Assembly (NCBI GenBank): GCA_963762565.1
Contig: CAVXLD010000005.1
Span: 512,001 to 576,000, forward strand
Direction of reading: 5' to 3'
Origin: an uncultured Verrucomicrobiae bacterium
Lineage (GTDB): Bacteria > Verrucomicrobiota > Verrucomicrobiia > Chthoniobacterales > JAFAMB01
Length of the DNA stretch: 64,000 nucleotides
Below are positions 721-25,631 of this stretch, one piece after another (within the stretch, counting starts at the first letter, position 1; each line of letters begins with the position of its first letter). The position numbers and the translations under genes were made by a program. The notes under the pieces are model-generated. The model saw nothing but the letters and a program-made list of their open reading frames with translations, searched no databases and was not told the DNA's origin.

Positions 721-880
721 GCTGCACCATTGCAAGCTCTGTCCCGGTTTTCCGACGGGAATGTGTACGCTTTTAGACGCTTAACGCTTCTAAAAGCGTA
801 TTGTCGTTTCGTTTTCTCCTTTAGGTAAGATCTTTATCCCTGGCTGTGCCTTAGAGCTACCGGCGCCGTTGACCGAATCG

Positions 881-1010
881 ATCATACCGTCCCGCTGGGA
901 CGGGGCGCATCTTTATACCCATCCCAGGCAGTAAACTGCCTTGGGCTACCATCATTTAGTCCCCGCCCGCAACGCTTCGCGTAGCGATGCGGGCCGGGCC
1001 TACGGGACAA
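881..1010. repeat. REP-like palindrome cluster with a nested hairpin
   Basis: Hairpins CCGTCCC-GCT-GGGACGG (887-903) and CCCAGGCAG-TAAA-CTGCCTTGGG (923-945), plus a GTCCC...CCTACGGGAC unit interrupted by a separate GC-rich palindrome (962-998). Confidence 0.7.
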
Positions 1011-1230
1011 ACAGCTTCGCCGCTGATTCGCAACCCAGCAAACACGGGGTTTTTCAACAGCCCGCTCTAGGGTTACGGTACGTGCTCGGCCCTGGGAACG
1101 GCGGATCGCGGGGACGCGATCCCTCCCGGCGCTGGGCGTAACCCAGATGCCGCGCGAAAAAGTAAAAACAAAACTTGTGCGCTCGGAAAACACAGCGCGA
1201 CAATACAGCGATAGAAAGGAAATAGATTTA

Positions 1231-2684
1231 ATGTTCGGGCCAAGAACACTCTTTGACAAAGTTTGGGAACAGCACATGATCGCCGAGCCTGAAGGCGAGC
1301 CCACCCTCATTTACATCGATTTGCACCTGGTGCACGAAGTCACCAGCCCACAGGCCTTTGACGGCCTGCGCATGACGGGGCGCAAGCTGCGCCGTCCTGA
1401 TCGCCACCTTGCAACGGTGGATCACAATGTGCCTACGACCAGCGCGCAAGATCGGCTCTTCATTGCAGACCAGATTTCGGCCGCCCAGGTCAACGCCCTT
1501 CGGAAGAACTGCGCTGAGTTCGGCGTGGAGTTTTTCGATGTGCAGGATAGATCCCAAGGGATTGTCCACATGATCGGGCCCGAGTTGGGAGCGACCAAAC
1601 CCGGTATGACCATTGTCTGCGGCGACTCCCACACTTCCACCCATGGAGCCTTCGGTGCTCTTGCATTCGGCATCGGCACCAGCGAGGTCGAGCACGTCAT
1701 GGCCACCCAGACTCTTTCGCAGGATAAGCCAAAGACTTTCCGTATCACGGTCAATGGTGACCTTCCGTTCGGTGTCGCCGCTAAGGACATCATCCTGGAG
1801 ATCATCGGTCAGATTGGCACCGACGGAGCTGCAGGCTATGTCGTTGAGTATGCAGGCTCAACTATCCGCGCCCTCTCCATGGAAGGTCGCATGACCATCT
1901 GCAACATGAGTATCGAGGCCGGTGCACGCGCCGGTATGATTGCTCCGGACGAGACCACGTTCACCTACCTCCGGGGTCGTCGTTTCTCGCCCAAGGATGG
2001 AGCGTGGGAGGAGGCACTCGCCTACTGGCGCACGCTCCCTTCCGATCCGGGCGCTACCTACGACCGCGAACTGAATATCGACGCAACCGTGCTGGCACCA
2101 CGTGTCACTTGGGGCACTTCCCCCGGCATGGTCACATCCATTGAGGCGAGGGTTCCGTCCATCGAAGACGCAAGGAACGAAGCTGAGCGCAGGTCCTTTG
2201 AACGCGCCCTTGAGTACATGGACCTCAAGCCCGGTATGGCGATGGAGGAAATCAAGGTCGACGCCGTCTTCCTGGGCTCCTGTACCAACGCCCGAATCGA
2301 AGATCTCCGCGCCGCCGCCGCCGTCGTCCGCGGCAACCACATCGCCACCACGGTGCGCGCCATGGTGGTTCCTGGTTCCCAGGCGGTTAAACGCCAAGCA
2401 GAAGAGGAAGGTCTCGACGCCGTCTTCAAAGCTGCCGGCTTCGAATGGCGAGAGCCCGGATGCAGTATGTGCCTTGGCATGAACCCGGACATCCTTGCAC
2501 CCGGCGAGCGTTGCGCGAGCACATCCAATCGCAACTTCGAGGGCCGCCAAGGGCGCGGCGGCAGAACCCATCTCGTCTCTCCGGAAATGGCCGCAGCCGC
2601 AGCGCTCACCGGTCACCTCACTGACATTCGCAAGTGGAAGCGGAGCCATCGCAACCGGAACTTGCGCAAGGAGGACCACGCTAA
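1231..2684 (+). CDS. leuC: 3-isopropylmalate dehydratase large subunit. As sequenced it reads through to 2865; a 1-nt indel near 2645-2680 would restore a TAA at 2682-2684 overlapping the leuD ATG
   Basis: [65 protein letters not shown] upstream of ATG 1231. Confidence 0.95.
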
Positions 2685-3319
2685 TGCAGCCTATCAACAT
2701 CATCCGCTCCAAAGCCGTCCCGCTGCCGCTGCCCAATATCGATACGGACCAGATAATCCCGAAGCAGTTTCTCAAGCGCATCGAGCGCACCGGCTATGGC
2801 GACTTTCTCTTCTTCGACTGGCGCCGCATTCAGGAAGGGCCCCACACAGGCGAGCCCAATCCTGACTTCGTTCTCAACCGGCCGGAGTACCAGGGCGCCG
2901 AGATCCTCATCGCAGAGAAGAACTTCGCCTGCGGGTCCTCTCGCGAGCACGCGGCCTGGGCTCTGCGTCAGTATGGTTTCCTCGTGGTCATCGCACCAAC
3001 TTTTGCCGATATCTTCTCCTCCAATGCCGGTAAGAATGGCATTGTCCTCGTCCGCCTCTCGGAAGAACAGGTGCAGACACTGATTTCCCGCTCAACCGCT
3101 AAACCAGAGCGTCAGCTGACTGTTAGTCTCGAGGATCAGATCGTCACCGACACCGATGGGTTTAGCGCCCACTTCGACATTGATCCCTTCCGCAAATATT
3201 GTCTGCTGAACGGCCTCGACGACATCGGTCTTACCTTACGGCACGAGCACGAACTCGACACCTTTGAATCGAAGCACGATAAAGACTTTTGGTTCCTACC
3301 GAAAACAGGAAACGGATAG
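2684..3319 (+). CDS. leuD: 3-isopropylmalate dehydratase small subunit
   Basis: [48 protein letters not shown] upstream of ATG. Confidence 0.96.
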
Positions 3320-3323
3320 GCGC

Positions 3324-3551
3324 TTACTGAATCGTCCAGAGCGGAAACGGTTGCCCTGCTTTTAGGTGAGGATCTTCGTCGTAAACAAGATCAATCACAC
3401 CGTTGTGCGTGAAACCCGTGAACGGTTTGTTTTCTCCGAACTTTAAGGTGTAGAATGAGCCTCGATACCTCGGAAACCCGATTCGAACGATTACACGATA
3501 CCGGCCGCCTAGGTTATCGACAGCGACGACTTTTGCACCAATGGCGGTCAT
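3324..3551 (-). CDS. Small hypothetical protein (75 aa, beta-rich)
   Basis: Clean ATG ORF with protein-like composition, preceded by a copy of the 38-bp motif. Confidence 0.6.
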   Translation of the reverse strand: MTAIGAKVVAVDNLGGRYRVIVRIGFPRYRGSFYTLKFGENKPFTGFTHNGVIDLVYDEDPHLKAGQPFPLWTIQ

Positions 3552-3641
3552 TTTTGATACTTCTAGGTCGTAGCCTCAGTCGAGTGAGGGATCCGGCATA
3601 GGAGTCACGGTGAGTCTCACCCGGTGCAATCGCTAGCACGC

Positions 3642-3679
3642 ATACTCTTTTTGACGCGTTACCGTTGTCTTTGCGTATG
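3642..3679 (-). promoter_or_regulatory. 38-bp LysR-like operator copy
   Basis: Minus strand CATAC GCAAAGACA ACGGTAAC GCGTCAAAAAGA GTAT. Confidence 0.7.
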
Positions 3680-4725: not shown

Positions 4726-4769
4726 CAGACTCAAAGGCAACAGTAACTCATCGATAACAGTATAGGAGA
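4726..4769 (+). promoter_or_regulatory. 38-bp LysR-like operator copy followed by AGGAGA
   Basis: CAGAC TCAAAGGCA ACAGTAAC TCATCGATAACA GTAT AGGAGA. Confidence 0.7.
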
Positions 4770-4798
4770 AGTTGACGCAGCGGGTCGACCCTAGCTGT

Positions 4799-4945
4799 GT
4801 GCTTTGGACAATAGCCATTATTTTAATTGTGCTCTGGGCCTTAGGCCTATTCACTCACGTTGCAGGCGGACTGATTCACGTACTCTTAGTCATCGCCATC
4901 ATTGTGATCGTGGTCAACCTGGTCCGCGGGCGTCGAATACTGTGA
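4799..4945 (+). CDS. lmo0937-family small membrane protein (48 aa, below the ORF-track cutoff)
   Basis: Manual translation MLWTIAIILIVLWALGLFTHVAGGLIHVLLVIAIIVIVVNLVRGRRIL. Confidence 0.85.
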   Translation: MLWTIAIILIVLWALGLFTHVAGGLIHVLLVIAIIVIVVNLVRGRRIL

Positions 4946-5022
4946 CTGATTGAACTGCGCGCTTCTACATCTTCCAAGCTTGGAGGCGGCAGTGAACCTG
5001 ATCCTCGGAGATCCGGTAGTCG

Positions 5023-6843
5023 ATGCCAAACAACTTAGTGTCTGAAAAGCCGATCGAACTGGGGAGGTTAATCCAGGTAGCATACCTGGTTGTCATTCTC
5101 TCGGCCTTGGCTTGGGCCAAGGAGCTATTGCTGCCCCTAATTCTAGCAATTCTGATCAGCTTTTTGTTAGCGCCCGTTGTGTCTCGCCTGGAACGTTGGA
5201 GGTTTCCTCGCGCAGTGGCCGTTCTTAGCGTCGTCGCCATTGGCTTCGCCCTGATCGGAGGCCTCTGCTCGACGCTTTCATTAGAGGGTCTGGATCTGGT
5301 TAACTCTCTGCCCAAGTACCGAGATAATATTCATGCCAGATGGGCGGCCATTCAGCGGGGGCCGCCTGGCCCACTCAATCTGGCACTTAGCAATGTTAAC
5401 GCGCTGATTACCGATCTAGGTAAAGTGACGGCATCCAAAGGCGTTCAACAGCCGGAGGTAACCAAGGTTCAGATTGTTAGCGGTGCCGACAATGTCCTTG
5501 CAATTGTGAAGAATAGCTTGACGCCGGTGGCGGGTCCGATCGGAGAATTCGCTTTGATCGTCGTGCTCGTGGTTTTTATGCTTTTAGAGCGAAACCGACT
5601 CCGCCTTCGGTTTCTTCGTTTGATTGGACACTCGCGGGTGGCGACGACCAACCTGGCTGTGGATGAGGTCGGATCCAAACTAAGCCGTTTTCTATTGGGT
5701 CAGTTGCTGGTGAACACTGGATATGCCTTGCTGCTTGGGCTTGGGCTTTTTCTGATCGGTATACCGAACGCGCTGCTCTGGGCAGTTCTGACGCTGATAT
5801 TGCGGTTTTTGCCTTACGTCGGTCTCTGGATATCTGCGTTTTTTCCTTTGCTATTATCTATTGCCATTTCCACAGGCTGGAAGGAGCCGATACTGACTCT
5901 GGCTCTCTATGGGTCTCTGGAAGTACTGACTAACAATTTTGTAGAACCTTTTGTCTTAGGCCATAGCACCGGAATGTCACCACTGGCCATAATCGTATCC
6001 GCCTTATTCTGGACGTGGCTTTGGGGGCCGATCGGTTTGTTGCTCGCCACACCCCTCACCGCTTGCCTGGTAGTGTTAGGTCGCTATTTTCCGGCATTCA
6101 ATGTCTGCAGTGTCTTGTTAGCGGCAGAGCCACCCTCCTCATCGGAAACACAATTCATTCTTCTCCTTACGGAAAACCGCCTTTCAGAGGCCAAAGCACT
6201 CCTGCAGGCATTGGGAGGGATGCAACTTTCAGTAGGAATCGCCGAAGGACTCATTTTGCCGACGCTCCGGGCGATTGAAAACGATCTCTATCCGAGAACT
6301 AATGAAACAAAATCTCGGATTTATGCGCAGCTGCGCGAACTGATTGAGGAAATGAGTGTCGAGGGCTCAACGGAATTGGAGCCGGCGCCGGAGCCATCAA
6401 CGCCTAAGCAGTCCGGAACGGCGATTGTGCCGTTCATGGGCGAAGGTGACGAAATTGTGGGGAGAGTTATCGCGCGCTTGCTGGCTGCTAAAGGGATCGA
6501 CTCGGATTTGTTATCCTGGCGAACTCTTCGGGCGGAGAAGGTGGAACGTCTGAAGGAATTAAGACCCCTTTGGATTTTGCTCTCCGCGATTGAGTCAAGA
6601 TCGGTACTTACTGTTGGTAGAATGGCGAGTTCCATTAAGCGTGAGCTACCCGATGCTCTGATTCTTGTCGGCCTTTGGAGCCTGCCAACTGAAGGCGCCG
6701 CGCGATGGGTAAAAAGAATCAAGAGGTCTTCCGGAAGCACTCTTTACACGAATATCGATCAGACAGTTGAAGGGATTGCTTCCCGCGTTCCTCAAGTGAG
6801 TGATAAGCTCCCGATCGGCCCGGAAAACACGACACAAGAGTGA
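5023..6843 (+). CDS. AI-2E family transporter with C-terminal soluble extension
   Basis: Multiple TM helices; ILRFLPYVG, NNFVEPFVLGHSTGMSPL, FWTWLWGPIGLLLATPLT. Confidence 0.9.
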   Translation: MPNNLVSEKPIELGRLIQVAYLVVILSALAWAKELLLPLILAILISFLLAPVVSRLERWRFPRAVAVLSVVAIGFALIGGLCSTLSLEGLDLVNSLPKYRDNIHARWAAIQRGPPGPLNLALSNVNALITDLGKVTASKGVQQPEVTKVQIVSGADNVLAIVKNSLTPVAGPIGEFALIVVLVVFMLLERNRLRLRFLRLIGHSRVATTNLAVDEVGSKLSRFLLGQLLVNTGYALLLGLGLFLIGIPNALLWAVLTLILRFLPYVGLWISAFFPLLLSIAISTGWKEPILTLALYGSLEVLTNNFVEPFVLGHSTGMSPLAIIVSALFWTWLWGPIGLLLATPLTACLVVLGRYFPAFNVCSVLLAAEPPSSSETQFILLLTENRLSEAKALLQALGGMQLSVGIAEGLILPTLRAIENDLYPRTNETKSRIYAQLRELIEEMSVEGSTELEPAPEPSTPKQSGTAIVPFMGEGDEIVGRVIARLLAAKGIDSDLLSWRTLRAEKVERLKELRPLWILLSAIESRSVLTVGRMASSIKRELPDALILVGLWSLPTEGAARWVKRIKRSSGSTLYTNIDQTVEGIASRVPQVSDKLPIGPENTTQE

Positions 6844-6858
6844 TCGAATTTCACTCGG

Positions 6859-6930
6859 CTAAGAGATTTTGGATTGGATCATCGCTTTTTGTTCTCGGGC
6901 GATATCTTCGAGCGTGACAATACCGACCAT
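6859..6930 (-). pseudogene. Possible CBS-domain C-terminal remnant
   Basis: MVGIVTLEDIAR resembles the CBS motif LVGIVSLxDI; only about 24 codons. Confidence 0.3.
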
Positions 6931-7066
6931 TCGCTTTTCACGAGTTCGATTGCTTTCCGTTATTAACAAGGTATGATCCGTATGAGGATCTTTCTGTTGC
7001 TCGGGTGATTCAGGGAATTCTGGACGAAGCGATGGCCTAAGCTCGGGCGGACAGGCCTGAGCACTA

Positions 7067-7969
7067 ATGAAACTTCGCCACCTGGAATACTTTGTCGCTG
7101 CTGCTGAAGAGCTGAATTTTACCCACGCGGCCGGTCGACTACACGTGTCGCAACCTCCCTTCAGCAAACAAATCCAGGATCTCGAGGGCGAGCTCGGAGT
7201 CAACCTGTTCCAGCGAGAACGCAAGGGGGTGGCGCTCACCGCGGCTGGAAAAGCATTTTTGATTGACGCGCGCGGGATCTTGGAATCCTGCGATCTGGCA
7301 GTGAAAAAAGCCCAACGCATCAATCGAGGAGAGCTGGGAGAGTTGACGGTCGGTCATATGGCGGCTCTGACCTATGATTTTCTCGGGCAAACCCTTGAGC
7401 GTTGGCAGAAGGTTTCGCCCGGAATCGTCGTTGACTGTGTAGAGATGGACCCGGAAACCCAAGAACGTGCGCTGCTAGACGGGCGCATCGCGGTGGGCAT
7501 CTTAGTCCTACTCAGCGATCGGCCGATCCTAGAATTGTTGAGAGTTCAGCAGCTGGTCCAGCATCCAGTCACGGTCGCATTGCCAAAATCCCACCCGCAA
7601 GCGGTCCTGCCGGACATCCCTTTGCCGGTCCTCAAAGAGGAACCTTTCATTGGGTTAAATAGAATGTACCCCGCGTACGGCAGTTGGCTGCAGACCGTCT
7701 GCCAACAAGGAGGGTTCAAACCACGCATTGTGAGGGAAGCAGACGGGGCGGCCAGTGCGCTCGCTATGGTTGCGGCTGGCTTTGGTGTCGCCTTGGTCAG
7801 CGAGCCAATCAAAAAGTTTCCGGCTAGACAGGTTGTTTTTAAAGATCTGGTGGCGCCAAAACCTGTAAAAATACCGCTCGGGGCTGTGTGGAAGAAAAAC
7901 GGGCTCTATTCAGAAGTCGTCTCTAAGTTCGTGGCCACTTTGAGCCAAGTCTGCGCCGCGATTGCCTGA
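7067..7969 (+). CDS. LysR-family transcriptional regulator (BenM/CatR/AlsR-like)
   Basis: MKLRHLEYFVAAAEELNFTHAAGRLHVSQPPFSKQIQDLE HTH; 300 aa. Confidence 0.96.
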   Translation: MKLRHLEYFVAAAEELNFTHAAGRLHVSQPPFSKQIQDLEGELGVNLFQRERKGVALTAAGKAFLIDARGILESCDLAVKKAQRINRGELGELTVGHMAALTYDFLGQTLERWQKVSPGIVVDCVEMDPETQERALLDGRIAVGILVLLSDRPILELLRVQQLVQHPVTVALPKSHPQAVLPDIPLPVLKEEPFIGLNRMYPAYGSWLQTVCQQGGFKPRIVREADGAASALAMVAAGFGVALVSEPIKKFPARQVVFKDLVAPKPVKIPLGAVWKKNGLYSEVVSKFVATLSQVCAAIA

Positions 7970-8064: not shown

Positions 8065-8108
8065 CATACGCTAAAGCCACAGCAACGCTTCGAGAGCGGT
8101 ATAGGAGA
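8065..8108 (+). promoter_or_regulatory. 38-bp LysR-like operator copy followed by AGGAGA
   Basis: CATAC GCTAAAGCC ACAGCAAC GCTTCGAGAGCG GTAT AGGAGA. Confidence 0.75.
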
Positions 8109-8201
8109 TGCGCATGAATGAGGGCGAGGTTCATAATGCCGGGCAACCGATAGCGGCACTCGGATCTATCTCCGAACTGATTCTCAGCCAAAGGCACATC
8201 T

Positions 8202-8921
8202 ATGTTACGAAGCGTTAAACAGCTCTACGGGAAAGCACTCGGCACGGCTGAAGGTGAAATCGGCCATGTGAAGGACTTCTATTTTAATGATCAACACTGG
8301 GTGGTTCGGTATGTCATCGCGAACACGGGTTCCTGCCTATCAGGGCGAACAGTGCTGATCTCTCCCCATGCCTTCGGTGACTTTCATCAGGACGGCGATT
8401 GCCTGCTCGTTAATCTGACTCGAGAACAGATTAAAAACAGCCCGGCCATTGATTCGCACAAGCCAGTCTCGCGACAATATGAAGAGGAGTATTACCGTTA
8501 TTATGGATGGCCGTTCTACTGGGAGGGATGCGGCATGTGGGGCGCGGGCGGGGCTCCATCGAGCTATCTAATGCCGCGTGAGGAAGAAATCGGCGGTAAC
8601 GACCACGATCGCGACGATCCTCATCTGCGAAGCACACAAGCTCTTAGCGGCTACCACATCGAAACCAGCGAAGGAGCGATTGGTCGCGTCACTGATTTTA
8701 TGATGGATGAGAAGAGCTGGGAGATTCGGCACCTGGTCGTCGAGACCGGCCATTGGTTTTCCGGCAAAGAGATCGCAATCTCACCGAAACAGATTGACCG
8801 CATCAGCTTCGAAGAATCCAAGGTGTTTGTGAAGGTAACCAAGGAAGCCATCCTGGAATCACCGGAGTACCACGTACCCCGGCTGGCCGCCGCGTATCAC
8901 GATACGCGAAATTTCGATTAA
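8202..8921 (+). CDS. Tandem PRC-barrel domain protein
   Basis: GEIGHVKDFYFNDQHWVVRY and GAIGRVTDFMMDEKSWEIRHLVV repeats; YYGWPFYW; DPHLRS. Confidence 0.9.
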   Translation: MLRSVKQLYGKALGTAEGEIGHVKDFYFNDQHWVVRYVIANTGSCLSGRTVLISPHAFGDFHQDGDCLLVNLTREQIKNSPAIDSHKPVSRQYEEEYYRYYGWPFYWEGCGMWGAGGAPSSYLMPREEEIGGNDHDRDDPHLRSTQALSGYHIETSEGAIGRVTDFMMDEKSWEIRHLVVETGHWFSGKEIAISPKQIDRISFEESKVFVKVTKEAILESPEYHVPRLAAAYHDTRNFD

Positions 8922-8961
8922 GCAATTCTAACAGACTAAGCATCGGACCGGGCGATCAGAT

Positions 8962-9080
8962 TCTCCTATACTGTTGTCGACGCGTTACCGTTTCGTTTAA
9001 GTGTGGGAAAGAACTGTTCGTCGGCCGGATTGTCAGCATACCAAAGAGCAATCAGAACACTTCGAAAAGGGTATAAGAGA
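8962..9080. promoter_or_regulatory. Back-to-back pair of 38-bp operator copies (8968-9005 minus, 9037-9074 plus)
   Basis: Minus CACAC TTAAACGAA ACGGTAAC GCGTCGACAACA GTAT AGGAGA; plus CATAC CAAAGAGCA ATCAGAAC ACTTCGAAAAGG GTAT AAGAGA. Confidence 0.7.
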
Positions 9081-9275
9081 AGCTCAAGACTCGGAGTAGG
9101 TTTTGTTGCGCATTTGGGCGGGGACAAGTGGGACTTAGGCAAGGCTCGCGCAGCGAACTCTTCGCTAACGAGGGGAAAGACTTTGCTCGCGACGGAGGTT
9201 TACCTCGCTCGGAGCAGATGAACGCTGGTGCTGCGCAACAAAACAGCTCCGATCGAGGGGCAAACTACGGAGATA

Positions 9276-10205
9276 ATGGAAGTGAACCAAAACAGGCCTC
9301 TTACAACGCTAATCTTTATTGTTATTGTGGGCGTCGGCGCAGCATTGGCCTACGCCATGCACATAATCGGCGCCGACTTGGGAGCCGCCGGGATTGGATT
9401 CGGCGCTCTTATACTGGCCCTGGTCGCTGCTTCCGCGATTCGGGTTGCTAATCAATGGGATAGGGCCGTGATATTGCGTCTGGGCAAATTCCACTCACTT
9501 AAGGGGCCGGGACTGTTCTTTATGATTCCCGTCGTCGATGTGATTCCTTATCGGATCGACACGCGTGTCATCACGACTGGTTTCAAGGCGGAAAAGACTC
9601 TGACCAAGGACACGGTGCCAGTGGACGTCGACGCCGTGCTGTTTTGGAAAGTGTTGGACCCAAAGAAGGCGGCGCTGGATGTAGCAGACTATCAAAGCGC
9701 GATAAGTTGGGCCTCCCAAACCGCCCTGCGCGATGTGATCGGTAAGACAATGCTTTCGGACATGCTGGAAGGTCGGGACAAAATTAGCGGCGTGTTGCAG
9801 AAGATCATTGATGAGCGCACCGAACCATGGGGCATCAATGTGATTTCAGTTGAGGTGAAGGATGTCTTGATCCCCTCAGCCTTGGAGAATGCGATGTCGA
9901 TGCAGGCCCAAGCGGAAAGAGAGCGTCAGGCCCGAGTGATTCTGGGTGACTCAGAGCGACAGGTGGCGGAGAAGTTTGCCGAAGCTGGCAAGACCTACGA
10001 ACACAATCCGGTGGCCTTCCATTTGCGGGCCATGAACATGCTTTATGAGGGTTTGAAGCAGAATTCCACGATCGTAATCGTTCCAAGTACCGCCGTAGAA
10101 AGCATGCAACTCGGGGGGCTTGCCGGGTTAACCGCGCTGACCATGGGATTAGGCCAGGAACGCGCCAACGGACAGAAGGAAGCCGAACTCAAGAGAGAAA
10201 CATGA
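9276..10205 (+). CDS. SPFH/stomatin (slipin) family protein
   Basis: RAVILRLGK, LTKDTVPVDVDAV, QTALRDVIG, QAQAERERQAR; start could instead be GTG 9228. Confidence 0.93.
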   Translation: MEVNQNRPLTTLIFIVIVGVGAALAYAMHIIGADLGAAGIGFGALILALVAASAIRVANQWDRAVILRLGKFHSLKGPGLFFMIPVVDVIPYRIDTRVITTGFKAEKTLTKDTVPVDVDAVLFWKVLDPKKAALDVADYQSAISWASQTALRDVIGKTMLSDMLEGRDKISGVLQKIIDERTEPWGINVISVEVKDVLIPSALENAMSMQAQAERERQARVILGDSERQVAEKFAEAGKTYEHNPVAFHLRAMNMLYEGLKQNSTIVIVPSTAVESMQLGGLAGLTALTMGLGQERANGQKEAELKRET

Positions 10206-11479: not shown

Positions 11480-11484
11480 GAAGC

Positions 11485-13917: not shown

Positions 13918-13990
13918 GTGTCCGAGAGCTTGTTCACACCGTTGAGAAGTTGCTGGCCTGCGAGCTATGAACCCGAAATCCGAATTTGAG

Positions 13991-14119
13991 ATCCGCAGAT
14001 TACACAGATTAGAACAATGTTTGGAAAGCGATACCGGCAAAACTTTGCGGTGCTCGAGTCCAGGCTGTCTTCGTGCTGCGTAACTCACTAAATCTGTGTA
14101 ATCTGCGTAATCTGTGGAT
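13991..14119. repeat. Miniature inverted-repeat element built from 9-mer units
   Basis: ATCCGCAGATTACACAGATT ... AATCTGTGT-AATCTGCGT-AATCTGTGG-AT. Confidence 0.7.
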
Positions 14120-14141
14120 TAACCCTTCTTTGGGATCTGGG

Positions 14142-15137: not shown

Positions 15138-15141
15138 GCTT

Positions 15142-17000: not shown

Positions 17001-17038
17001 CGCGCCCGATTTCGAAAAACTCAAAGCCAAAATAGATT

Positions 17039-19717
17039 ATGAAAACAAATACCGACCAACCCGCGGTATCCGTAGAATCGAAGCCAAAGGCTAGCGAGTC
17101 GAAGCCGGGATCGAAGCCCGCTGCGAAGGAGGATTTGAAATCCCTGCCCATGCCGGAGGTGGAGAAAAAATTGGGGTCGTCGCCGGACGGTCTCACCCAA
17201 GCCGAAGCGCAGAAACGGCTGACCCAATATGGGCCTAACGAGATCAAAGAAAAGAAAACCAATCCGCTCCTGAAATTCCTCTCCTATTTTTGGGGTCCCA
17301 TCCCGTGGATGATCGAAGTGGCCGTGATTCTGTCGGGCGTCGTCGGGCACTGGCCGGATTTTTTCATCATCCTCCTTTTGCTTGTTGCCAACGCTGTAGT
17401 CGGATTCTGGGAAGAACGCGAGGCGGGAAATGCCATTGCCGCCCTGAAGGCTCAACTGGCGATCAATGCGCGGGTGAAACGTGATGGGCAGTCGATTACC
17501 CTTCCGGCGCGTGAGTTAGTGCCGGGTGACGTCATCCACGTGCGCTTGGGTGACGTTGTGCCGGCGGATGCGCGTTTGCTCGCGGGCGATCCGATGGAGG
17601 TGGATCAGTCCGCGCTGACGGGAGAATCGTTGCCTGCCGAGCGCAAATCGGGCGAGGCAGTGTTTTCCGGTTCGATCATTCGTCAGGGTGAAATCGACGC
17701 ACTGGTCTATGCCACGGGCGCAAACACCTACTTCGGCAAGACGGCGCAACTGGTGCAAGAGGCGCACACTGTCAGCCATTTTCAAAAGGCCGTGTTGAAG
17801 ATTGGCAATTACCTGATCATCCTCGCGGTGGCTCTGGTGGCGGTGATTATTGTCGTCGCCATCTTCCGCGGCGATCCGATCCTCAGCACGTTGCAGTTCG
17901 CTTTGGTGCTGACCGTGGCGGCGATTCCCGTGGCGATGCCGACGGTGTTATCGGTGACGATGGCAGTCGGCGCGCGCCTACTCGCCAAGAAACAGGCGAT
18001 TGTGAGCCGGTTGGTGGCGATCGAGGAATTGGCGGGTGTGGACGTCCTTTGCTCGGACAAGACCGGCACCCTGACCCAGAACAAGCTGACGCTGGGCGAT
18101 CCGTTCGGCGTGAACAATATTCCCGTCGAGCAAGTCATCCTCAATGCCGCGCTGGCGTCGCGCGCGGACAATAACGACACCATTGATCTTGCCGTTTTGG
18201 GCGGCCTGAAAAACAAGCAGGCGCTAAAGGGTTATCAGGTGCTCCATTTCCAGCCATTCGATCCGGTGCATAAACGCGCCGAAGCGAGCATCAAAGCCGC
18301 GGATGGAAAGACGTTCAAAGTGGCGAAGGGCGCGCCGCAGGTGATTTTGGAATTGTCGGCCAATGCCGCGCAGGTGAAGTCCGCCGTCGACACGGCGGTC
18401 AATGAATTCGCAGCGCGCGGCTTTCGTTCGTTGGGCGTGGCGCGCGCTGAGGGAGAAGGTAAATGGCAGTTTCTTGGTGTGTTGCCCCTCTTCGATCCGC
18501 CACGGGAAGATGCCAAGGCAACCATCGCGACCGCGCGACAGATGGGCGTAAAGGTCAAAATGGTTACGGGCGATGCACTGGCCATCGCCCAGGAAACCGC
18601 CAAGAAATTAGGGATGGGCACAGCCATTCTCGATGCCGGCGGCCTTGGCGACGTTAAGCATCAAGAGAGTAAGGCGGTGGGCGAGTCCATCGAAAAGGCC
18701 GACGGTTTCGCCCAGGTGTTCCCTGAACACAAGTTCCACATTGTGGATGTCCTGCAAAAACTCGGCCACATCGTCGGCATGACGGGTGACGGGGTGAATG
18801 ACGCTCCCGCCCTGAAAAAAGCAGACTGCGGCATCGCCGTTTCAGGCGCGACGGACGCGGCGCGTGCGGCGGCGGCTGTCGTGCTGATGACGCCGGGTCT
18901 GTCGGTGATTATTGATGCGATCAAGGAGAGCCGGAGAATTTTCCAGCGGATGAACAGCTACGCGATCTACCGAATCGCGGAAACGCTGAGGGTGCTGTTC
19001 TTTATGACCCTCGCAATCCTGGTTTTTAACTTTTATCCATTGACGGCGGTGATGATCGTGATGCTGGCTTTACTCAATGACGGCGCCATCCTATCCATTG
19101 CCTATGACAATGTTCATTACAAGGATCAGCCCGAGTCGTGGAACATGCGCATGGTGTTGGGGATATCCACGGTGCTGGGCGTCATCGGTGTCGTCTCCGC
19201 CTTCGGCTTGTTTTATCTCGGCGAGCGAGTCTTTCATCTTGACCGCGCGCACATCCAGACGCTGATGTATTTGAAGCTGTCGGTGGCGGGACATCTCACG
19301 ATCTTTCTTACTCGCACACGCGGTCCATTCTGGTCGATCCGTCCCGCGCGAATTTTATGGGTAGCGGTGCTTGGAACGCAAATCGTTGCGACATTGATCG
19401 CCGTCTATGGGCTGTTTATGACTCCCCTCGGTTGGGGTTGGGCACTGTTCGTTTGGGGCTATGCTCTGGTTTGGTTTCTTTTGAATGACCGGGTGAAGCT
19501 GCTCGCATATCGGATTTTGGATCCCGCCAAAGCCAAGATTGATCCTGCCGAAACTAAGATTGATCCGCCCAAAGCCAAGACGCCGTCCGATTTGACGCCG
19601 CAGATCGCCACGCGAGCCTATGCGCTCTATGAGCGGGCAGGCCACCGTGATGGTCACGCAGTTCAGGACTGGGGTGAAGCGGAGCGGGAGATTCGTAAAG
19701 ATGAGTCCCGCAAATGA
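17039..19717 (+). CDS. Type IIIA proton-efflux P-type ATPase with C-terminal DUF2934-like module
   Basis: TGES, IPVAMP, CSDKTGTLT, KGAP, MTGDGVNDAPALK, LLNDG; tail QIATRAYALYERAGHRDGHAVQDWGEAEREI. Confidence 0.93.
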   Translation: MKTNTDQPAVSVESKPKASESKPGSKPAAKEDLKSLPMPEVEKKLGSSPDGLTQAEAQKRLTQYGPNEIKEKKTNPLLKFLSYFWGPIPWMIEVAVILSGVVGHWPDFFIILLLLVANAVVGFWEEREAGNAIAALKAQLAINARVKRDGQSITLPARELVPGDVIHVRLGDVVPADARLLAGDPMEVDQSALTGESLPAERKSGEAVFSGSIIRQGEIDALVYATGANTYFGKTAQLVQEAHTVSHFQKAVLKIGNYLIILAVALVAVIIVVAIFRGDPILSTLQFALVLTVAAIPVAMPTVLSVTMAVGARLLAKKQAIVSRLVAIEELAGVDVLCSDKTGTLTQNKLTLGDPFGVNNIPVEQVILNAALASRADNNDTIDLAVLGGLKNKQALKGYQVLHFQPFDPVHKRAEASIKAADGKTFKVAKGAPQVILELSANAAQVKSAVDTAVNEFAARGFRSLGVARAEGEGKWQFLGVLPLFDPPREDAKATIATARQMGVKVKMVTGDALAIAQETAKKLGMGTAILDAGGLGDVKHQESKAVGESIEKADGFAQVFPEHKFHIVDVLQKLGHIVGMTGDGVNDAPALKKADCGIAVSGATDAARAAAAVVLMTPGLSVIIDAIKESRRIFQRMNSYAIYRIAETLRVLFFMTLAILVFNFYPLTAVMIVMLALLNDGAILSIAYDNVHYKDQPESWNMRMVLGISTVLGVIGVVSAFGLFYLGERVFHLDRAHIQTLMYLKLSVAGHLTIFLTRTRGPFWSIRPARILWVAVLGTQIVATLIAVYGLFMTPLGWGWALFVWGYALVWFLLNDRVKLLAYRILDPAKAKIDPAETKIDPPKAKTPSDLTPQIATRAYALYERAGHRDGHAVQDWGEAEREIRKDESRK

Positions 19718-19746
19718 ACCGAGGCTAATCGCGCGGCCAGGCCAAT

Positions 19747-20628
19747 GTGAAATATAGCGAACTGTTCCAAGTAAAGCCGGGCAGCGAAGTCCGGCTGAAG
19801 AAGATCAATCCTGACTCCACCGAACACACGAAGAAGAAATCGGCGGTCAAACAAGTTGAGAAACTCGACGGGAAACTGCGCGAACTGCAATATCTTCTCT
19901 ACGCTGAGAACAAGCGCTCCCTGCTAATTTGCCTGCAGGCGCTGGATGCCGCCGGCAAGGACGGAACCATCAACCACGTCCTTGGCTCGATGAACCCGCA
20001 GGGCGCGCGCGTCCATGGATTCAAAACGCCCACCGCAGAGGAGGCCCAGCATGACTTCCTCTGGCGCATCGAGCAGCAGGTGCCCAAGAACGGCGAGGTC
20101 GTCATCTTCAATCGCTCCCACTATGAGGACGTTCTTGTGGTGCGTGTGCACCAGCTTGTTCCCAAGGAAGTCTGGAAAGGGCGCTACGAGGCGATCAATG
20201 ATTTCGAAAAGAACCTTTTCGAGAATGGTACGCGCATCCTCAAGTTCTTCTTACACATCAGCCCGGAGGAGCAGCTCCTACGCTTCCGTCAGCGTCTCGA
20301 TGACCCCGCCCGGCAATGGAAGATCAGTGAAAACGACTATGCGGAGCGGGAATTGTGGGACGATTACATCTCCGCCTACGAAGAGGCCATTCGCAAAACG
20401 AGCATGAAGCACGCGCCCTGGTTCATCATCCCAGCAAACAACAAATGGTTCCGTAATCTCGCCGTTGCGAGGATCGTCGCGGAGACACTCGAGTCGCTCG
20501 GCATGAACTTCCCCGATCCGACGGTTAATCTTAAGGAAATCGCGCGCAAATACCATCGCACCGAGCTCGAAGAAGAGAAGAAGATTGGAAAGTCAAAATG
20601 GAAGCAGCTGACAGGAGAGGGGGGTTGA
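19747..20628 (+). CDS. ppk2: Polyphosphate kinase 2 family (class III-like)
   Basis: QALDAAGKDGTI, HDFLWR, FNRSHYEDVLVVRVH, APWFIIPANNKW. Confidence 0.93.
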   Translation: MKYSELFQVKPGSEVRLKKINPDSTEHTKKKSAVKQVEKLDGKLRELQYLLYAENKRSLLICLQALDAAGKDGTINHVLGSMNPQGARVHGFKTPTAEEAQHDFLWRIEQQVPKNGEVVIFNRSHYEDVLVVRVHQLVPKEVWKGRYEAINDFEKNLFENGTRILKFFLHISPEEQLLRFRQRLDDPARQWKISENDYAERELWDDYISAYEEAIRKTSMKHAPWFIIPANNKWFRNLAVARIVAETLESLGMNFPDPTVNLKEIARKYHRTELEEEKKIGKSKWKQLTGEGG

Positions 20629-21263
20629 GGTTAAAACTATATTTTCTGCGTCACGGGGAGACGACTTATAGTGAGACAGGCGCTTACTGCGGGGATCTGG
20701 ATCCTGAGTTAACTTCTGAAGGGGCTCAGATGGCGAGAGCGTTTGCAGATGCCTATCGTTCAATAGCCTGGACCGCGGTTTATGTCAGTCCGATGAAACG
20801 CACGATCGCCACCGCAAAGCCTCTGTGCGACGCTCTGGGCTTGGAGATGCAACTGCGAGACGGGCTCAAAGAAATCCGCTACGGGAAGTGGGAAGATAAG
20901 TCAGTCGACTTTGTGAAACAGCACTACTGGGATGATTACGTCCACTGGCTGGCTGAACCGGCTTGGAATCCGCCTACCGGGGGTGAAACCTCTGTCGAGA
21001 TTTCCAGTCGAGCGTCGCTGGTGGTCACAGAGATACAGGAAAGGTATGCCCATGGCGATGTCTTAGTTGTGTCTCACAAAGCCACGATCCGAATTCTTCT
21101 CTGTAGCCTACTAGGCATTGATCTAGGGCGTTATCGCGATCGCATCGAAATGTTAGCTGGTTCGGTTAGCATAGTCAGGTTCGACGTACATGGTCCCTTA
21201 CTAGAGGTTTTGGGTAATCGCGTATATATGGGCGAAGAGCTATGTGCTCGGCCAGGCGCCTAA
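20625..21263 (+). CDS. Histidine phosphatase (phosphoglycerate mutase family)
   Basis: LRHGET, SPMKRT, LKEIRYGKWE, VVSHKAT. Confidence 0.9.
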   Translation: MRLKLYFLRHGETTYSETGAYCGDLDPELTSEGAQMARAFADAYRSIAWTAVYVSPMKRTIATAKPLCDALGLEMQLRDGLKEIRYGKWEDKSVDFVKQHYWDDYVHWLAEPAWNPPTGGETSVEISSRASLVVTEIQERYAHGDVLVVSHKATIRILLCSLLGIDLGRYRDRIEMLAGSVSIVRFDVHGPLLEVLGNRVYMGEELCARPGA

Positions 21264-21336
21264 CCCCCCCGCAAAAACAGTAATGGAGAAGCGGATGAAT
21301 CAGAGAGAAACCAACCAGGAGGATACCTAATTTTAG

Positions 21337-22804
21337 GTGTCAAGTCGTGTGGACTCCGTATCCCCTTTTCGCAAAAAGCTTCGCATCTATTTCATCGGCT
21401 TGACGGCCGCGCTTGCTGGTCTGCTATTCGGATTAGACGTTGGCGTCATTTCCGGGGCACTGCCTTTTTTGAAGAATGATTTTAAGCTGTCGATTGGAGC
21501 AGAAGGAGCTGTGGTTAGCGCCCTGCTGTGGGGAGCAGTGATTGGAACGCTGATGAGCGGAATGCTCTCGAACTACCTTGGGCGCCGTAAAACGATCCTT
21601 GATCAGCTGCAGTGGTCTTCGCCGTGGGTTCGATCCTCTGTTCAATTTCAGCTTCAGAGCATCTTGCTAATCGGCGCCCGCTTGTTTCTTGGTTTCGCCG
21701 TGGGCGTAGCGTCGTTCGAAGCGCCGCTCTATATCTCCGAAATTTCTCCGAAGAAGGTGCGCGGCTCACTTATTTCGATGTATCAGCTAATGATCACCAT
21801 CGGAATCCTGCTTGCGTTTCTAAGCAACACTTGGCTCGCGACCTATTTTACGTTTCAAGGAAAGACTGGCGGCCACTGGCGCCTTATGCTCGGTATAATT
21901 TCTATTCCGGCCGTGATAATGTTCGTGGGCGTACTCTTCCTGCCCGAAAGCCCGCGGTGGCTGTTCTTAAAAGGTTTCAAAGCTCGCGGCGTGGCTGTGT
22001 TAGAGGGAATGCATCTTGATGAGGCCGAGATCGCCGAGCAGGTCAAAGAAATCGAGGACAACTTGAAAGTTAAACAAGAGTGGATTTGAGATGTTCAAGA
22101 CCAATCCCAACTTCCGCCGCGTCATTGGCCTTGGGATTGGACTTCAGATTATCCAGCAGCTTACCGGCATCAATGTGGTGATGTATTTTGCGCCGACGAT
22201 TTTCAAGATTGCGGGATTCGCCACCACGAGTGGTGAAATGTGGGGAACGGTGATCATCGGAATAACCAACTTGCTTGCGACATTCATCGCGATTGGGTTT
22301 GTCGACAAACTGGGCCGGAAGCCGATCATGTACGCAGGTTTTGTTACCATGGGCGTCGCCATGATTGCTGTGGGAACGCTCTTCAACCTGGGGGTAGAAA
22401 AAAATCCCGAGCTTGGTTATTTCGCCATCGTTGCGTTGCTGGTCTTCATTATTGGTTTTGCAATGAGCGCCGGGCCAATCATCTGGGTGATCTGCTCGGA
22501 AATTTACCCACTTGAGGGCCGCGACCTCGGAGTGACCTTCAGCACCGCGACAAACTGGATTGCCAACGGCATCGTGGGTATGACGTTCCTCTTGCTCCTC
22601 GCCGGGTTCGGTAACGGCAATACATTTCTCCTCTATGGCGCGCTGAATATCCTGTTTATCATTTTCTTCGTGATCTTCGTTCCGGAGACGAAGGGTGTGT
22701 CGCTGGAGAAGATCGAAGCGAATCTTCTGTCGGGTCTACCGTTGAGGCAGATCGGGCGATCGGGGGCTGGCGTTGCCGGCTTGACTCAAAGATTATCCCA
22801 CTAG
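21337..22804 (+). CDS. Sugar porter MFS transporter (GalP/AraE-like), frameshifted near 21600-21660 and 22080
   Basis: LAGLLFGLDVGVISGAL, PLYISEISPKKVRG, PESPRWL, QQLTGINVVMYFAP, PETKGVSLE. Confidence 0.9.
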
Positions 22805-22920
22805 TCTCGGCATTGATTTTGGCGGCACCAGCATTTAGCGCCGCAAATTCTTTGGGGTGAGATAGCCCAAAGCGCTCTGCGGGCCCGCACTTCGTTTTAT
22901 TCGGCTTCGTCACGGTTCCC

Positions 22921-25335
22921 TTAGTTGGCGATCTTTTCGATTGGCGCCAATTTGAACCGGAGGTCATCCTCCTGCCCTCGGTTGATACTCGCGATTCGGG
23001 AGGTTGGGGAGTTGCTGACTGAGCGTGGGCCGTCGGCGGACCATGCTGGGGCTCCTGACCTTTTGGTTTCTCTAACGAGGACCGCTTCGGCTCGATTCAT
23101 CTCGGCCAGCGCGAACTGGAAAGCAAGGGTGGATTCGGCTCCTTGGTTTTGGTTAACCCGATCGGGATGCAAAGCGTCGCGACAGCCACCCGTGCTCGAA
23201 TCGTAGAGTGGCTGCCCGAGATCGTTGCGACCAAGAAACCACTCGAAGCAGCGGCGCGCCGCCCGGTGCCAAGTCGCATCCCGAGTCAGCGAGTACGCTT
23301 CCACGCAGGCGGCAATCATGGCGTGGGCTTCCAACGGTTGCTGATCGAAGCGGGCGCGTTCGTTGCCCCGGGTCCAGAAACCATTGCTGCCGATCGGCGC
23401 GAAATGGCCCGCGTTCGGCCTTTTGCTGCTCCACCAGCCAGCGGAGCGATCGCAATCCAATGTCGACGACGTCACCTCGGGAGGTCCAGTATCCACTGAG
23501 GATCATCGCCTGGGAAAGTTTCGCGTTATCGTAAGTCGCTACAGGCTCAAACCACACCCAATCATCCGAGGAATTATGTCGAAACAGCTCGACCAAGCGG
23601 TTGGTTAGAACTTCGCGCAATTGATTGGCACTTCGATCGCCGGAGAAGGCGCGCAGATATTCCTGAATGGCGAGTAGCGCAAACGCCCAGGCTCTCGGTG
23701 AACTGAAATTCTCGACTGTCGGGAGTCCGCGTTGGAACAAAAGTGCGCAAAGATTACGGTGTCCTTCGTTTTTGGAGCGGCCCAGCGCCGTGCCGGCAGC
23801 CCAAAGCGCGCGTGCGTGGCTGTCCTCCGAACCCTCGCGTTCCAGCCATTGCCGCTGATGGCTCATGAAATTTCGAAAACGGCAGCTTTCTTGATCAAAA
23901 GCGTGCCACAAGAACGCGAGGTAAATGCTCGCCAAGTGTTCGAATTGCTGCTGCGTGACACGACTCGTCGTTTCCTCCAGCAGCAAGGTCAGGATAAAAG
24001 CACGCGCGTTGTCGTCCGTGCAGTAGCCTTCTGCAAAGTTCGGCACGTTGAAGATCGCATGCTGAAAAATGCCGGTGTTATCGGTCATCCGAAGCAGGTG
24101 ATCCAGCTTCAGTGGCGGCAACTGGTAGGGGCGATTGTCCAGGGTTCGAACGGCGAACGCCTTTCGTGGAGGACACGCTCAAACTTGCCCGCGCGCGTTC
24201 GAAGCTTTCCATGTGGCGCTGGGCGACCACCGGCCAGATCATCCCACGTCCCAGTTTCCATGCTCTTTTGCGCGTCGCCGTCATCAGGACCGGATCGGAA
24301 AGAAATCGATTCACCCCCTCAGCGATCGCCTTGCGGATTCGCGAACGGCACCAGGATGCCGCGCTCGTTCGCCAGCAACTCCTTCGCATGCCAGTAGGGT
24401 GTGGAAATGACTGCTTTGCCAGCGCCGAAACGTGTAGGCCAGCGTGCCGGAAGTAATCTGGGATTCGTTGAGATAAGGCGTGATATAGATGTCGGCGGCG
24501 CCAATGAATTCTTTCAATTCCTCCAGCGTCACAAATCGATTGTAGAAGATGACGTTGCGGTGCCACAGCAACGATCCTCCGCGAGGCGCTCCAGCTTGAG
24601 CCGATAGGATCTCTCCGTCGCGCGCGATAAGATTCGGGTGGGTTGCGCCCAGAATGATATAAACCACATTCGGATGTTGCTGCGAGAATCGCCGGCAGCG
24701 CTTCAATGACATACTCGATTCCTTTGTTAGGCGAGAGCAGGCCAAACGTCAGCAGCACGGTTTTTCCCTCCACTCCAAACTGATCTTTGTTAAAATTGGA
24801 TCGATGAAGGGGATGTCCGGTATGCCATGCGGAATCACGTCAATCTTCTCTGGCGCGATGCCATAGATTTCCTCGAGGAAATCGTTTGCCTCGGTCGGCC
24901 ATCACAATGAAGCGGTTCGAGAGTTCATCGAGCTGCTTCATCACCGCCCGCTGATCCGGATTCGGCTCGCGCAGCACGGTGTGCAACGTCGTTACCACCG
25001 GCATATGGACGTCGCGCAAGAGAGCCAGAAGATGGCTGCCGGCAGGCCCGCCGTAGATGCCGAACTCGTGCTGGACCGAAACGACCTCGACGTTGTTGAT
25101 GTTCAGGAAGTCGGCCGCGCGGCGATAGGAATCGAGTTCCTTTTCGTCGATTTCAAATCGGATCCGAGCCGGATAGTCATAGCCTTCAGGTCGATCATTG
25201 ACCGCGCCCACGATGCACTCGGCATTGCGGGAATTCCGCCGCCATCGCTTCGCAGATATCGGAGGTGAAGGTGGCAATGCCGCACTGGCGCGGAAGATGA
25301 TCCCCGAGGAAGGCTATTTGTGTGATGGGCGGCAT
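22921..25335 (-). CDS. GT4 glycosyltransferase fused to a C-terminal alpha-helical glycosidase-like domain; split by several frameshifts
   Basis: Fragments [98 protein letters not shown]. Confidence 0.88.
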
Positions 25336-25587
25336 CGTTTAGTTAGGCGAACGGAGACGGATCCAGCGCAATTGTCATCGGGACCTCACAAATCCGGACA
25401 GTGAATGCCCATGGCCTCGAAGAGAGCGCGTGGGGCGATAGAACCAACCAGAAAAGCAGTGCATTTGTCATACGGCCTTCCCCGCGGTCATTCCTGCCAA
25501 AGTCACGCACGCGCGGTCGAGCTAGCGAATTCATCCCATAGGAGAGCACGAGTCCGGCAGTATGAGTTTTGCCCGGATCCGTTGGCT

Positions 25588-25631
25588 TCTCCAATACGCT
25601 TACCGAAGTGTTACTGTCGCTTTTGCGTATG
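25588..25631 (-). promoter_or_regulatory. 38-bp LysR-like operator copy upstream of the GT4 fusion
   Basis: Minus CATAC GCAAAAGCG ACAGTAAC ACTTCGGTAAGC GTAT TGGAGA. Confidence 0.75.

Follow-up and report, generated by a model that had tools for sequence, protein, structure and literature searches.

Which protein reads the sequence element that recurs between the genes of this Chthoniobacterales bacterium, and what does the element do? An earlier note on the stretch analysed here (the window, 64,000 nucleotides of contig CAVXLD010000005.1) had described a 38-bp operator repeated over 25 kb, and had assigned it to the LysR-type regulator encoded at 7067..7969. The six clear copies were recovered: they align without gaps and are all intergenic, and five of them point at a gene start, the exception being the copy at 8968(-), which points towards the end of the PRC-barrel gene, antisense to it. 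The literal pattern proposed for the operator retrieves five copies with 0-1 mismatches (0.05 expected, from 100 dinucleotide shuffles), whereas the copy at 9037 needs 4 mismatches, yet scores 42 bits by matrix. The limits set to the element had to be abandoned. Conservation reaches position 67, and sites are found genome-wide, so that the regulon is not local to the window. A matrix scan at a threshold of at least 22 bits gave 30 sites in the genome against 0 with 5 column-shuffled matrices. The genome carries 33 copies of the element, 26 of which lie within two islands, each with a LysR gene of its own.

The proposed division into two 15-bp boxes, 22 bp apart, in the geometry of LysR-type regulators, was found in the elements of the genome itself and in those of its relatives; a variant that is 1 bp longer occurs at the LysR gene. 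Downstream of the boxes A63 (27 of 30 own-genome sites, 92 of 96 sites of relatives) and T67 (24 of 30 and 77 of 96, respectively) are conserved, which suggests a sigma-70-like -11A/-7T signature with a predicted +1 near position 74. With the start so placed, the boxes are centred at predicted positions -65 and -43. The core carries TGGAGA or GGGAGA at the -35 position and CGAnnnT at -10. The AGGAGA that had been included in the tail of the motif corresponds to this -35 position, and its reading as a ribosome site is ruled out (ATG at position 50 in 6 of 87 sites). Start codons could be matched by pattern in 64 cases; in 63 the codon falls on the predicted +1 or beyond it, and for three the distance is +1 to +4. 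It is likely that the 67-base repeat represents an entire promoter that depends on an activator. A generic scan for promoters and terminators performed at chance level. As a housekeeping-promoter control, TTG-N19-TAnnnT was found to be 1.8-fold enriched upstream of 2338 genes, and GAnnnT was likewise enriched (1.6-fold), at all spacings. Among soil metatranscriptome contigs (three runs, word share <0.1) none extends over the operator of the DUF5670 copy; some begin at most 16 bases from the predicted start, others continue with sequence that is unrelated, and a start cannot in any case be read off a contig.

Within the window (Table 1) the AI-2E family transporter gene is probably co-transcribed from the promoter at 4726, and the element at 8939..9005 is a putative orphan or antisense promoter. 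The same-strand run at 10285..22804 contains no further element and may be co-transcribed from the element at 9037. The suggestion that ackA and xfp belong to the regulon gained support from the adjacency of the SPFH gene and ackA in two metagenome loci, and from the presence of xfp directly behind a site in two relatives. An intact 763-aa paralogue of the GT4 fusion is encoded 33 kb upstream. For the small membrane proteins listed earlier as targets two corrections apply: no site is oriented like the LapA-like gene, and the protein of 75 aa at 3324..3551 matches no membrane family, Pfam and NCBIfam searches having returned no match.

Two weaker copies had also been reported. The one at 764-801 is a real half-element, whose centre and box 2 score 21.9 bits, a level met at only 29 places genome-wide, but a full operator it is not, and it is missing behind groEL in all 7 relatives examined. 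The one at 6938-6975(-) scores -26 bits in that register, its CATAC being the reverse of the -10 box of the LysR gene. The true remnant of box 1 lies 11-12 bases from this register, fused to the tail of a CBS-domain gene. Only box 1 is left of the divergent operator at this LysR copy, a deletion having taken most of the CBS-domain gene along with the core promoter and box 2.

Table 1. Elements and genes of the window, with predicted promoter features
Feature	Position	Strand	Remarks
Half-element: inverted box 2, then centre and box 2	764..801	+	No core promoter; hairpin possible after groEL
75-aa protein, no known family	3324..3551	-	Behind a site in several relatives too
Full 67-bp element	3613..3679	-	64 bits; box 1 3664-3678, box 2 3642-3656
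-10-like box of element 3613..3679	3613-3618	-	-10-like GAGACT; predicted start 3606
Full element	4726..4792	+	63 bits; boxes 4727-4741, 4749-4763
-10-like box of element 4726..4792	4787-4792	+	-10-like GACCCT; predicted start 4799 = GTG of following gene
lmo0937/DUF5670 small membrane protein	4799..4945	+	
AI-2E family transporter	5023..6843	+	
Last codons of CBS-domain gene, deletion remnant	6880..6946	-	Relatives keep intact LysR-CBS divergent pair
Surviving box 1 of divergent operator before LysR gene	6944..6964	-	
Predicted LysR promoter	6950..6977	+	TTGCTT-16-TATGAT; -35 inside box 1, opposite strand
LysR-type regulator, candidate activator	7067..7969	+	Recognition helix SQPPFSKQ
Full element before PRC-barrel gene	8065..8131	+	60 bits; predicted start 8138
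PRC-barrel domain protein	8202..8921	+	
Full element without own gene	8939..9005	-	60 bits; antisense into PRC-barrel gene end
Full element before SPFH gene	9037..9103	+	54 bits; predicted start 9110
SPFH/Band 7 protein	9276..10205	+	
Same-strand run	10285..22804	+	ackA, xfp, PMI, HAD/PMM, GH130, P-type ATPase, PPK2, histidine phosphatase, sugar porter
GT4 glycosyltransferase fusion	22921..25335	-	Several frameshifted pieces in assembly
Full element before GT4 fusion gene	25565..25631	-	73 bits; predicted start 25558

The element and the island LysR share their distribution. The LysR orthologue is present in 11 of the 22 family genomes, as many as have the motif, and a screen of 178 further genomes of the order yielded neither. 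Among 42 family relatives, 20 of the 21 genomes with at least 3 sites carry a LysR orthologue or a fragment of one (as these kin are not independent, the co-occurrence does not amount to a statistical test); the exception is G213 (75% complete), where the orthologue was not found. A phylum-wide search, in which at most 5 candidates were scored per genome, detected the orthologue in none of 400 other genomes. An exact-pattern scan of 185,579 species genomes returned 61 distinct loci, 44 of them from Verrucomicrobia. Fifteen of the other 17 have no downstream core and look like chance, and the remaining two are a Terriglobia contig end and an unclassified contig that is 87-96% identical to the island.

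The protein at 7067..7969 matches the Pfam families HTH_1 and LysR_substrate, both above cut-off, and a second copy on another contig is 81% identical and has the same recognition helix. The earlier assignment is supported to the extent that this LysR subfamily is the best candidate. A full site is found at 101 and 998 bases, respectively, from the two island LysR genes, and the remaining 14 LysR matches of the genome are more than 44 kb from a site or on site-free contigs. Among 141 orthologues, residues S28-Q35 are each unchanged in 140-141. A site is present at every one of the 80 metagenome LysR loci. In 58 of the 70 that offer room for it, a divergent site precedes the LysR start by 80-135 bases, and the -35/-10 pattern predicted for the LysR gene, whose -35 overlaps the divergent site, occurs in 68 of 78; in LysR clades at 57-71% the divergent site is degenerate.

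We consider it probable that the island LysR activates a family of promoters, binding as a tetramer on both boxes and governing some thirty mostly stress-related transcription units. Bound to box 1 at the predicted -65 and box 2 at the predicted -43, the tetramer would recruit RNA polymerase to the weak core, so that these units would be switched on together. Box 1 overlaps the -35 of the divergent LysR gene, which would lead to self-repression. The targets form a stress-type gene set, as had been claimed: they encode Hsp20, USP, a DUF892 ferritin-like protein, N-ATPase, P-type ATPases, phosphoketolase-acetate kinase, PPK2 and a desaturase. Such a set is suggestive of low oxygen, acid or energy stress as the signal.

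The operators of BenM and CatM of Acinetobacter baylyi, and those of CbnR, CatR and ClcR, have ATAC and GTAT half-sites in common with the element (for BenM/CatM, PMC6628147, PMC11495319). They likewise contain two adjacent 15-bp sites, the second beside the -35, and the regulator gene is transcribed divergently from a promoter that overlaps site 1. CbnR and BenM are among the solved structures closest to the island LysR, and the QPP recognition helix is identical to that of CbnR at H26-P31. Four further LysR paralogues in the genome also have a QPP helix, so that the binder cannot be picked out by its helix only. The claim of BenM/CatR-type half-sites stands for the outer ones (ATAC in 45 and GTAT in 58 of 62 elements), whereas neither box is the full ATAC-N7-GTAT dyad. 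The right half of box 1 reads CAAC (22/62) or CAAT (12/62), with GTAT outside the eight commonest words, and T-N11-A is found in 49 of 62 first boxes and 29 of 62 second boxes. Here the inner half-sites and the spacer make a conserved word of their own: G18, A20, A21 and C22, together with C24 and T26, are conserved to the same degree as the half-sites. Since the anchor site of a LysR protein is normally its most symmetric site, a box 1 without dyad counts against a plain BenM reading, as do the conserved spacer, C24 and T26, which the BenM consensus leaves unexplained. Arg34, which gives BenM its specificity, is a lysine in the island LysR (140 of 141 orthologues), T100 of CbnR is an alanine, and the few catabolic operons of the BenM/CatM type contrast with the number of targets proposed here. 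The NCBIfam models of BenM and CatM gave only 112 and 104 bits, against cut-offs of 600 and 580. The best NCBIfam scores were those for AlsR (227 bits, and 238 for the other copy; cut-off 430) and CidR (149 bits; cut-off 415), which are acetate- or acid-responsive LysR proteins. The targets here include an acetate-forming pathway and ion-pumping ATPases, in line with this likeness; both family scores are far under the cut-offs.

The GcvA, MetR, IlvY, OxyR and CynR promoters likewise have two 15-bp repeats, 22 bp apart, at about -65 and -43, as far as the available part of PMC5002191 describes them; the values it gives for gcvB and ilvC fit the box centres exactly, for a start that was itself deduced from A63/T67 and the start-codon positions. 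According to the same text the site of oxidised OxyR covers four half-sites that are arranged in this geometry; OxyR, too, is a stress regulator with many targets. These systems differ in half-site sequence, and in our element no clear third box was seen at -34 and the starts are predicted. In low-oxygen stress islands such as the lxa locus of Burkholderia cenocepacia (PMC12973609), USP, Hsp20 and further stress genes are likewise clustered and have one motif in common. For lxa, control by the Crp/Fnr protein FixK (TGAT-N6-ATCA) is proposed; its gene content overlaps only partly with ours, and the shared element here is LysR-like.

A co-travelling XRE regulator, encoded outside the window, is a rival candidate for binding the element. 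Its gene is present in 19 of the 21 motif-rich genomes, about as good a co-occurrence as that of LysR, and within 1.5 kb of LysR in 22 of 26 loci, in three different arrangements; a same-strand site lies at most 1.1 kb upstream of 28 of 36 XRE copies. Between them, the two copies in the genome have LysR, DUF5662, desaturase and CsrA as neighbours. By sequence and fold (model pLDDT 68; best Foldseek E 0.002) the nearest solved structures are C.AhdI, C.BclI and C.Esp1396I, controller proteins of restriction-modification systems, which bind 35-bp two-dimer operators according to the available text of PMC2504287. Alone or with LysR, such a protein might bind the 37-bp motif as two dimers, activating or repressing, and the conserved centre and core spacer are indeed not accounted for by the LysR consensus. 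We nevertheless regard this as unlikely. The C-box GACT-N3-AGTC (one mismatch) occurs in only 4 of 62 elements (shuffle mean 2.5, maximum 6), and no endonuclease or methyltransferase gene lies beside the two XRE copies of the source genome. The XRE recognition helix varies (Arg at position 37 in 34 of 38, Ser at position 38 in 28 of 38), whereas the motif does not. The XRE gene holds the divergent position in only 40 of 70 metagenome loci, and the divergent site keeps about -103 from the LysR start where other genes replace it; moreover, 8 of the 36 XRE copies have no upstream site. Unlike the controller proteins, the XRE protein has four invariant cysteines (C33, C56, C59 and C64, in 38 of 38). 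Its gene is itself a target, and the protein probably acts as second-tier or feedback regulator. The island LysR also has invariant cysteines (C75, C124, C212 and C296), and it is conceivable, though doubtful, that the two regulators form a thiol switch of a general or low-oxygen stress regulon, LysR activating and XRE feeding back on the conserved core. If true, this switch would fill the role that FixK, DosR or sigma-B has in other bacteria.

It appears improbable that an alternative sigma factor, for example a short RpoD-like paralogue, reads the core at 39-67 together with LysR, or that such a factor has its promoter in the 38-bp part itself. The genome does encode two short RpoD-like sigma factors with QSIKR instead of QAITR in region 2.4, the -10 region is C-G-A in 52 of 87 non-redundant sites and not a mixture of non-T bases, and positions 7-11 and 25-32 are similar to a sigma-28 promoter whose spacer is one to two bases short. 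However, the C-G-A bias is explicable if the promoters descend from one another or from a common source, the 16 sigma hits read, of 33, included no recognisable FliA-like protein, and the rarity of a start codon after GGAG argues against a start near position 39. At a low threshold the core alone gave 35 matches outside known sites (16-22 with shuffled matrices), and the single strong hit was another full site. An independent class of sigma promoters is unsupported, the core not being found apart from the upstream boxes beyond shuffled-matrix level.

A site-specific recombination site, or a small mobile repeat that shuffles island gene cassettes, is very hard to credit. In its favour, the 37-bp motif is a pseudo-palindrome around 7 conserved central bp, relatives differ strongly in gene order, two rearrangement junctions fall inside the element, and an integrative element adjoins the island. 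But 51 site pairs with the same downstream leader and different upstream context are 84% identical in box 1 (background 64%), identity declining gradually upstream with no crossover at the central spacer, which largely refutes this reading, and the sites aim at gene starts, form back-to-back pairs and show neither Rfam match nor base-pair covariation. A structured RNA was likewise rejected, as the top mutual-information pairs are not base pairs and the sole Rfam hit is irrelevant (E 0.38).

A LysR-activated promoter family would belong to a well-known class of mechanism, and the surprise is in that respect moderate. Our literature searches, whose coverage extended to few subscription papers and to no supplements, found no description of this regulon. 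More than 100 natural sites, in which the inner half-sites are degenerate and the spacer is conserved, provide unusual data on how a tetramer reads DNA. By the 67-base signature, stress genes can be picked out in every genome of the family, among them many without an assigned function, and the regulon yields a candidate master activator together with a candidate feedback regulator. Chthoniobacterales are abundant in soil and their gene regulation is almost wholly undescribed; the proposed regulon, if true, would reveal in this little-studied lineage a circuit of stress control that has not been described before.

The six clear copies of the element that the earlier note had reported in the window, starting at 3642(-), 4726(+), 8065(+), 8968(-), 9037(+) and 25594(-), were all confirmed there and align without gaps. 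Five of them match the literal pattern with at most one mismatch (mean expectation 0.05 in 100 shuffles), and the copy at 9037, missed in this way, scores 42 bits by matrix. A matrix seeded with these six sites and iterated over the genome (6.1 Mb, 15 contigs) found 30 sites of at least 22 bits, versus 0 for five column-shuffled matrices, and with a 67-column matrix 33 sites scored at least 25 bits, 26 of which lie in two islands (C3 1-31 kb and C5 496-538 kb). A weaker sub-class outside the islands, CATAC-NCAAAAGCT...CAATACATAT-TGGAGGG, may belong to the island LysR or to a paralogous one. One of two palindromic double-box-2 variants, that on C3, is kept in the relatives G128, G168 and G218, with a core on one side, and upstream of the LysR gene in loci L155 and L142 two elements are joined end to end via a common GTATAC. 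A 46-bit copy at a contig end in a Terriglobia bin (L032) reflects either misbinning or transfer.

The two weaker copies fared differently. Alignment with the upstream regions of paralogous and related LysR genes showed that the one proposed at 6938-6975 is in the wrong register: its CATAC is the -10 box of the LysR gene itself in reverse. Box 1 is still present at 6949-6963, and the sequence after it is the 3' end of a CBS reading frame; since the divergent LysR-CBS pair is intact in close relatives, most of the CBS gene has been lost from the window by deletion, along with box 2 and the core. The copy at 764-801 consists of a genuine centre and box 2 on the right (21.9 bits, a score reached at 29 places in the genome) and an inverted box 2 on the left, with no core behind them. 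This half-element is absent behind groEL in all seven relatives examined, and is therefore a local remnant that may also serve as a hairpin. The adjacent groEL-leuC gap contains short, REP-like palindromic repeats with many copies in this and related genomes.

Conservation in the element runs from a T-rich flank through ATAC (2-5), AAA (8-10), GTAAC (18-22), C24, T26, GTAT (35-38) and GGAGAA (40-45) to C61, G62, A63 and T67, its end. A63 is present at 27 and T67 at 24 of the genome's own 30 sites; among 96 sites of relatives the counts are 92 and 77, and among 36 non-redundant sites from metagenomes the shares are 94% and 81%. An A at -11 and a T at -7 are marks of the sigma-70-type -10 box. 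Read in this way, A63 and T67 would place +1 near position 74, with GGAGA in the place of the -35 sequence and the boxes centred on -65/-43, and we infer that the element is a whole promoter. The predicted box centres match those reported for gcvB and ilvC (-65 and -43; oxyS and cynT have -66/-44) in the available part of PMC5002191. Start codons located by family patterns lie at or 3' of the predicted +1 in 63 of 64 cases, three of them at +1 to +4; the sole exception is a pattern mismatch. A role of GGAG as ribosome site was rejected.

The distribution of the element follows that of the LysR. Its orthologues form a single clade (100/100), separate from nine paralogues; across a sample of the order, 11 of 22 family genomes have the orthologue and 11 have the motif, against 0 of 178 others for either, and the four discordant genomes are explained by fragmentary orthologues or by a site located at the LysR gene. 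Relatives of the genome are labelled Chthoniobacterales or Verrucomicrobiae. Among all 42 family relatives, searched with a fixed-length pattern allowing two mismatches (reversed pattern: 0-1 matches per genome), 21 have at least three sites, 20 of these with an orthologue or fragment; nine have one or two, with an orthologue in two and a broken copy in one; and 12 have none, two of which hold an orthologue and, by gapped scoring, a 1-bp longer site. The force of this comparison is limited by kinship and incomplete assemblies. The C3 island ends with another LysR gene, 81% identical, which has a site on the opposite strand 101 bases upstream. All 80 metagenome LysR loci contain a site, which is divergent and 80-135 bases before the LysR start in 58 of 70 loci with room; in 68 of 78 the predicted LysR -35 falls within box 1, an arrangement known from self-repressing members of the family (PMC11495319).

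Not all features of the element fit a BenM-type operator. The outer half-sites agree with the BenM/CatM (ATAC-N7-GTAT; PMC6628147) and CatR/ClcR (PMC6449761) consensus, as far as the available parts of these sources go, but the inner ones differ (box 1 ends in CAAC/CAAT, box 2 starts with CTTC/CGTC) and the spacer is conserved. The LysR shares H26-P31 with CbnR but carries F32-S33-K34, three residues that are the same in 140-141 of 141 sequences, and scores below the cut-off of all named families (best AlsR, 227 vs 430 bits). In its mode of action the element appears to resemble a two-box LysR promoter, but it cannot be classed as a BenM-type operator.

A serious rival is that a small XRE protein, whose nearest known relatives are the controller proteins C.AhdI and C.BclI, binds the element, alone or together with the LysR. 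Its gene is present in 19 of 21 motif-rich genomes and absent from the window; most relatives have it next to the LysR, with 22 of 26 LysR copies no more than 1.5 kb away from it, and 28 of 36 XRE copies stand behind a site. However, the element lacks a C-box as defined in the available part of PMC2504287, the recognition helix is variable, and the divergent site is kept at the LysR where the XRE, found in 40 of 70 loci, has been replaced. The four XRE cysteines are invariant in 38 of 38 copies, as nearly are C75, C124 and C212 (139-141/141) and C296 (36/36) of the LysR; thiol sensing is a lead only, and part of these residues may serve a structural purpose. Dual dependence on the LysR and a short RpoD-like sigma factor is possible, given a consistent G at -12 of the predicted core promoter; the genome encodes two such factors, both with a Lys in region 2.4 where E. 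coli has T440. An independent alternative-sigma promoter class and a structured RNA are unsupported, and a recombination site is excluded, there being no crossover at the element centre; the promoter moves whole together with its gene.

Locations of the features discussed (C, contigs of the genome; L001 and L002, loci of C3)
Feature	Location	Strand	Remark
XRE gene	C3:29602-29856 (= L002:15600-15857)	minus	C.AhdI-like
XRE gene	C3:26662-26916 (= L002:12669-12917)	minus	C.AhdI-like
LysR gene	window 7067-7969	plus	
Short RpoD-like sigma factors	C12:378116-378982; C13:71509-72399		
Weaker sub-class sites	C4:107884; C4:108329; C1:1135070; C1:1145343; C3:500643		
Palindromic variants	C3:28861-28897; window 765-801		double box 2
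N-ATPase-type operon	L001:2006-8647		complete; atpD first, AtpR subunit
CsrA gene	L002:12265-12510		target of element
REP-like repeats	window 945-1140		
Acetate kinase start	window 10285-10287		apparent ACG
leuC	window 1147-2865		frameshifted
Sugar porter	window 21337-22804		frameshifted
GT4 fusion	window 22921-25335		frameshifted
Integrative conjugative or mobilisable element	window 25900-57130		adjoins island; DUF932, coupling protein, relaxase pieces, tyrosine integrase

The promoter family is real and family-restricted, and most likely represents a large LysR regulon; its architecture is known, its sites show unusual features, and a partner regulator is conserved alongside it. The literature searched, which left out most subscription papers, yielded no description of it, and a look-up by XRE sequence returned nothing.

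Genes behind sites in the genome encode DUF5670, PRC-barrel, SPFH, GT4 fusion, N-ATPase, P-type ATPase, Hsp20, CsrA, CBS, AraC, SDR and deaminase proteins and many small unknown ones. Recurrent first genes at 163 sites from relatives and fetched loci of this genome are XRE (20), desaturase (9), DUF2147 (9), F420-dependent-type oxidoreductase (8) and DUF5670 (6), then USP, L,D-transpeptidase and GT4 (4 each) and Hsp20, xfp and atpD (2 each). The complete N-ATPase-type operon (Table) stands behind an element, as in one relative. Co-transcription of SPFH with ackA-xfp is plausible from the shared strand, the short gap and their adjacency in two other loci. The acetate kinase gene apparently starts with ACG after a good ribosome site, as in metagenome loci L142 and L143, so that an assembly error is excluded; it is either a non-canonical start or a weakened gene. 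Frameshifts interrupt several other genes besides leuC, the sugar porter and the GT4 fusion, and probably reflect decay or errors of long-read assembly. The target set partially resembles the low-oxygen lxa locus, for which FixK has been proposed as regulator (available part of PMC12973609), and the signal may be low oxygen, acid or energy stress. CsrA as a target would tie the regulon to translational control.
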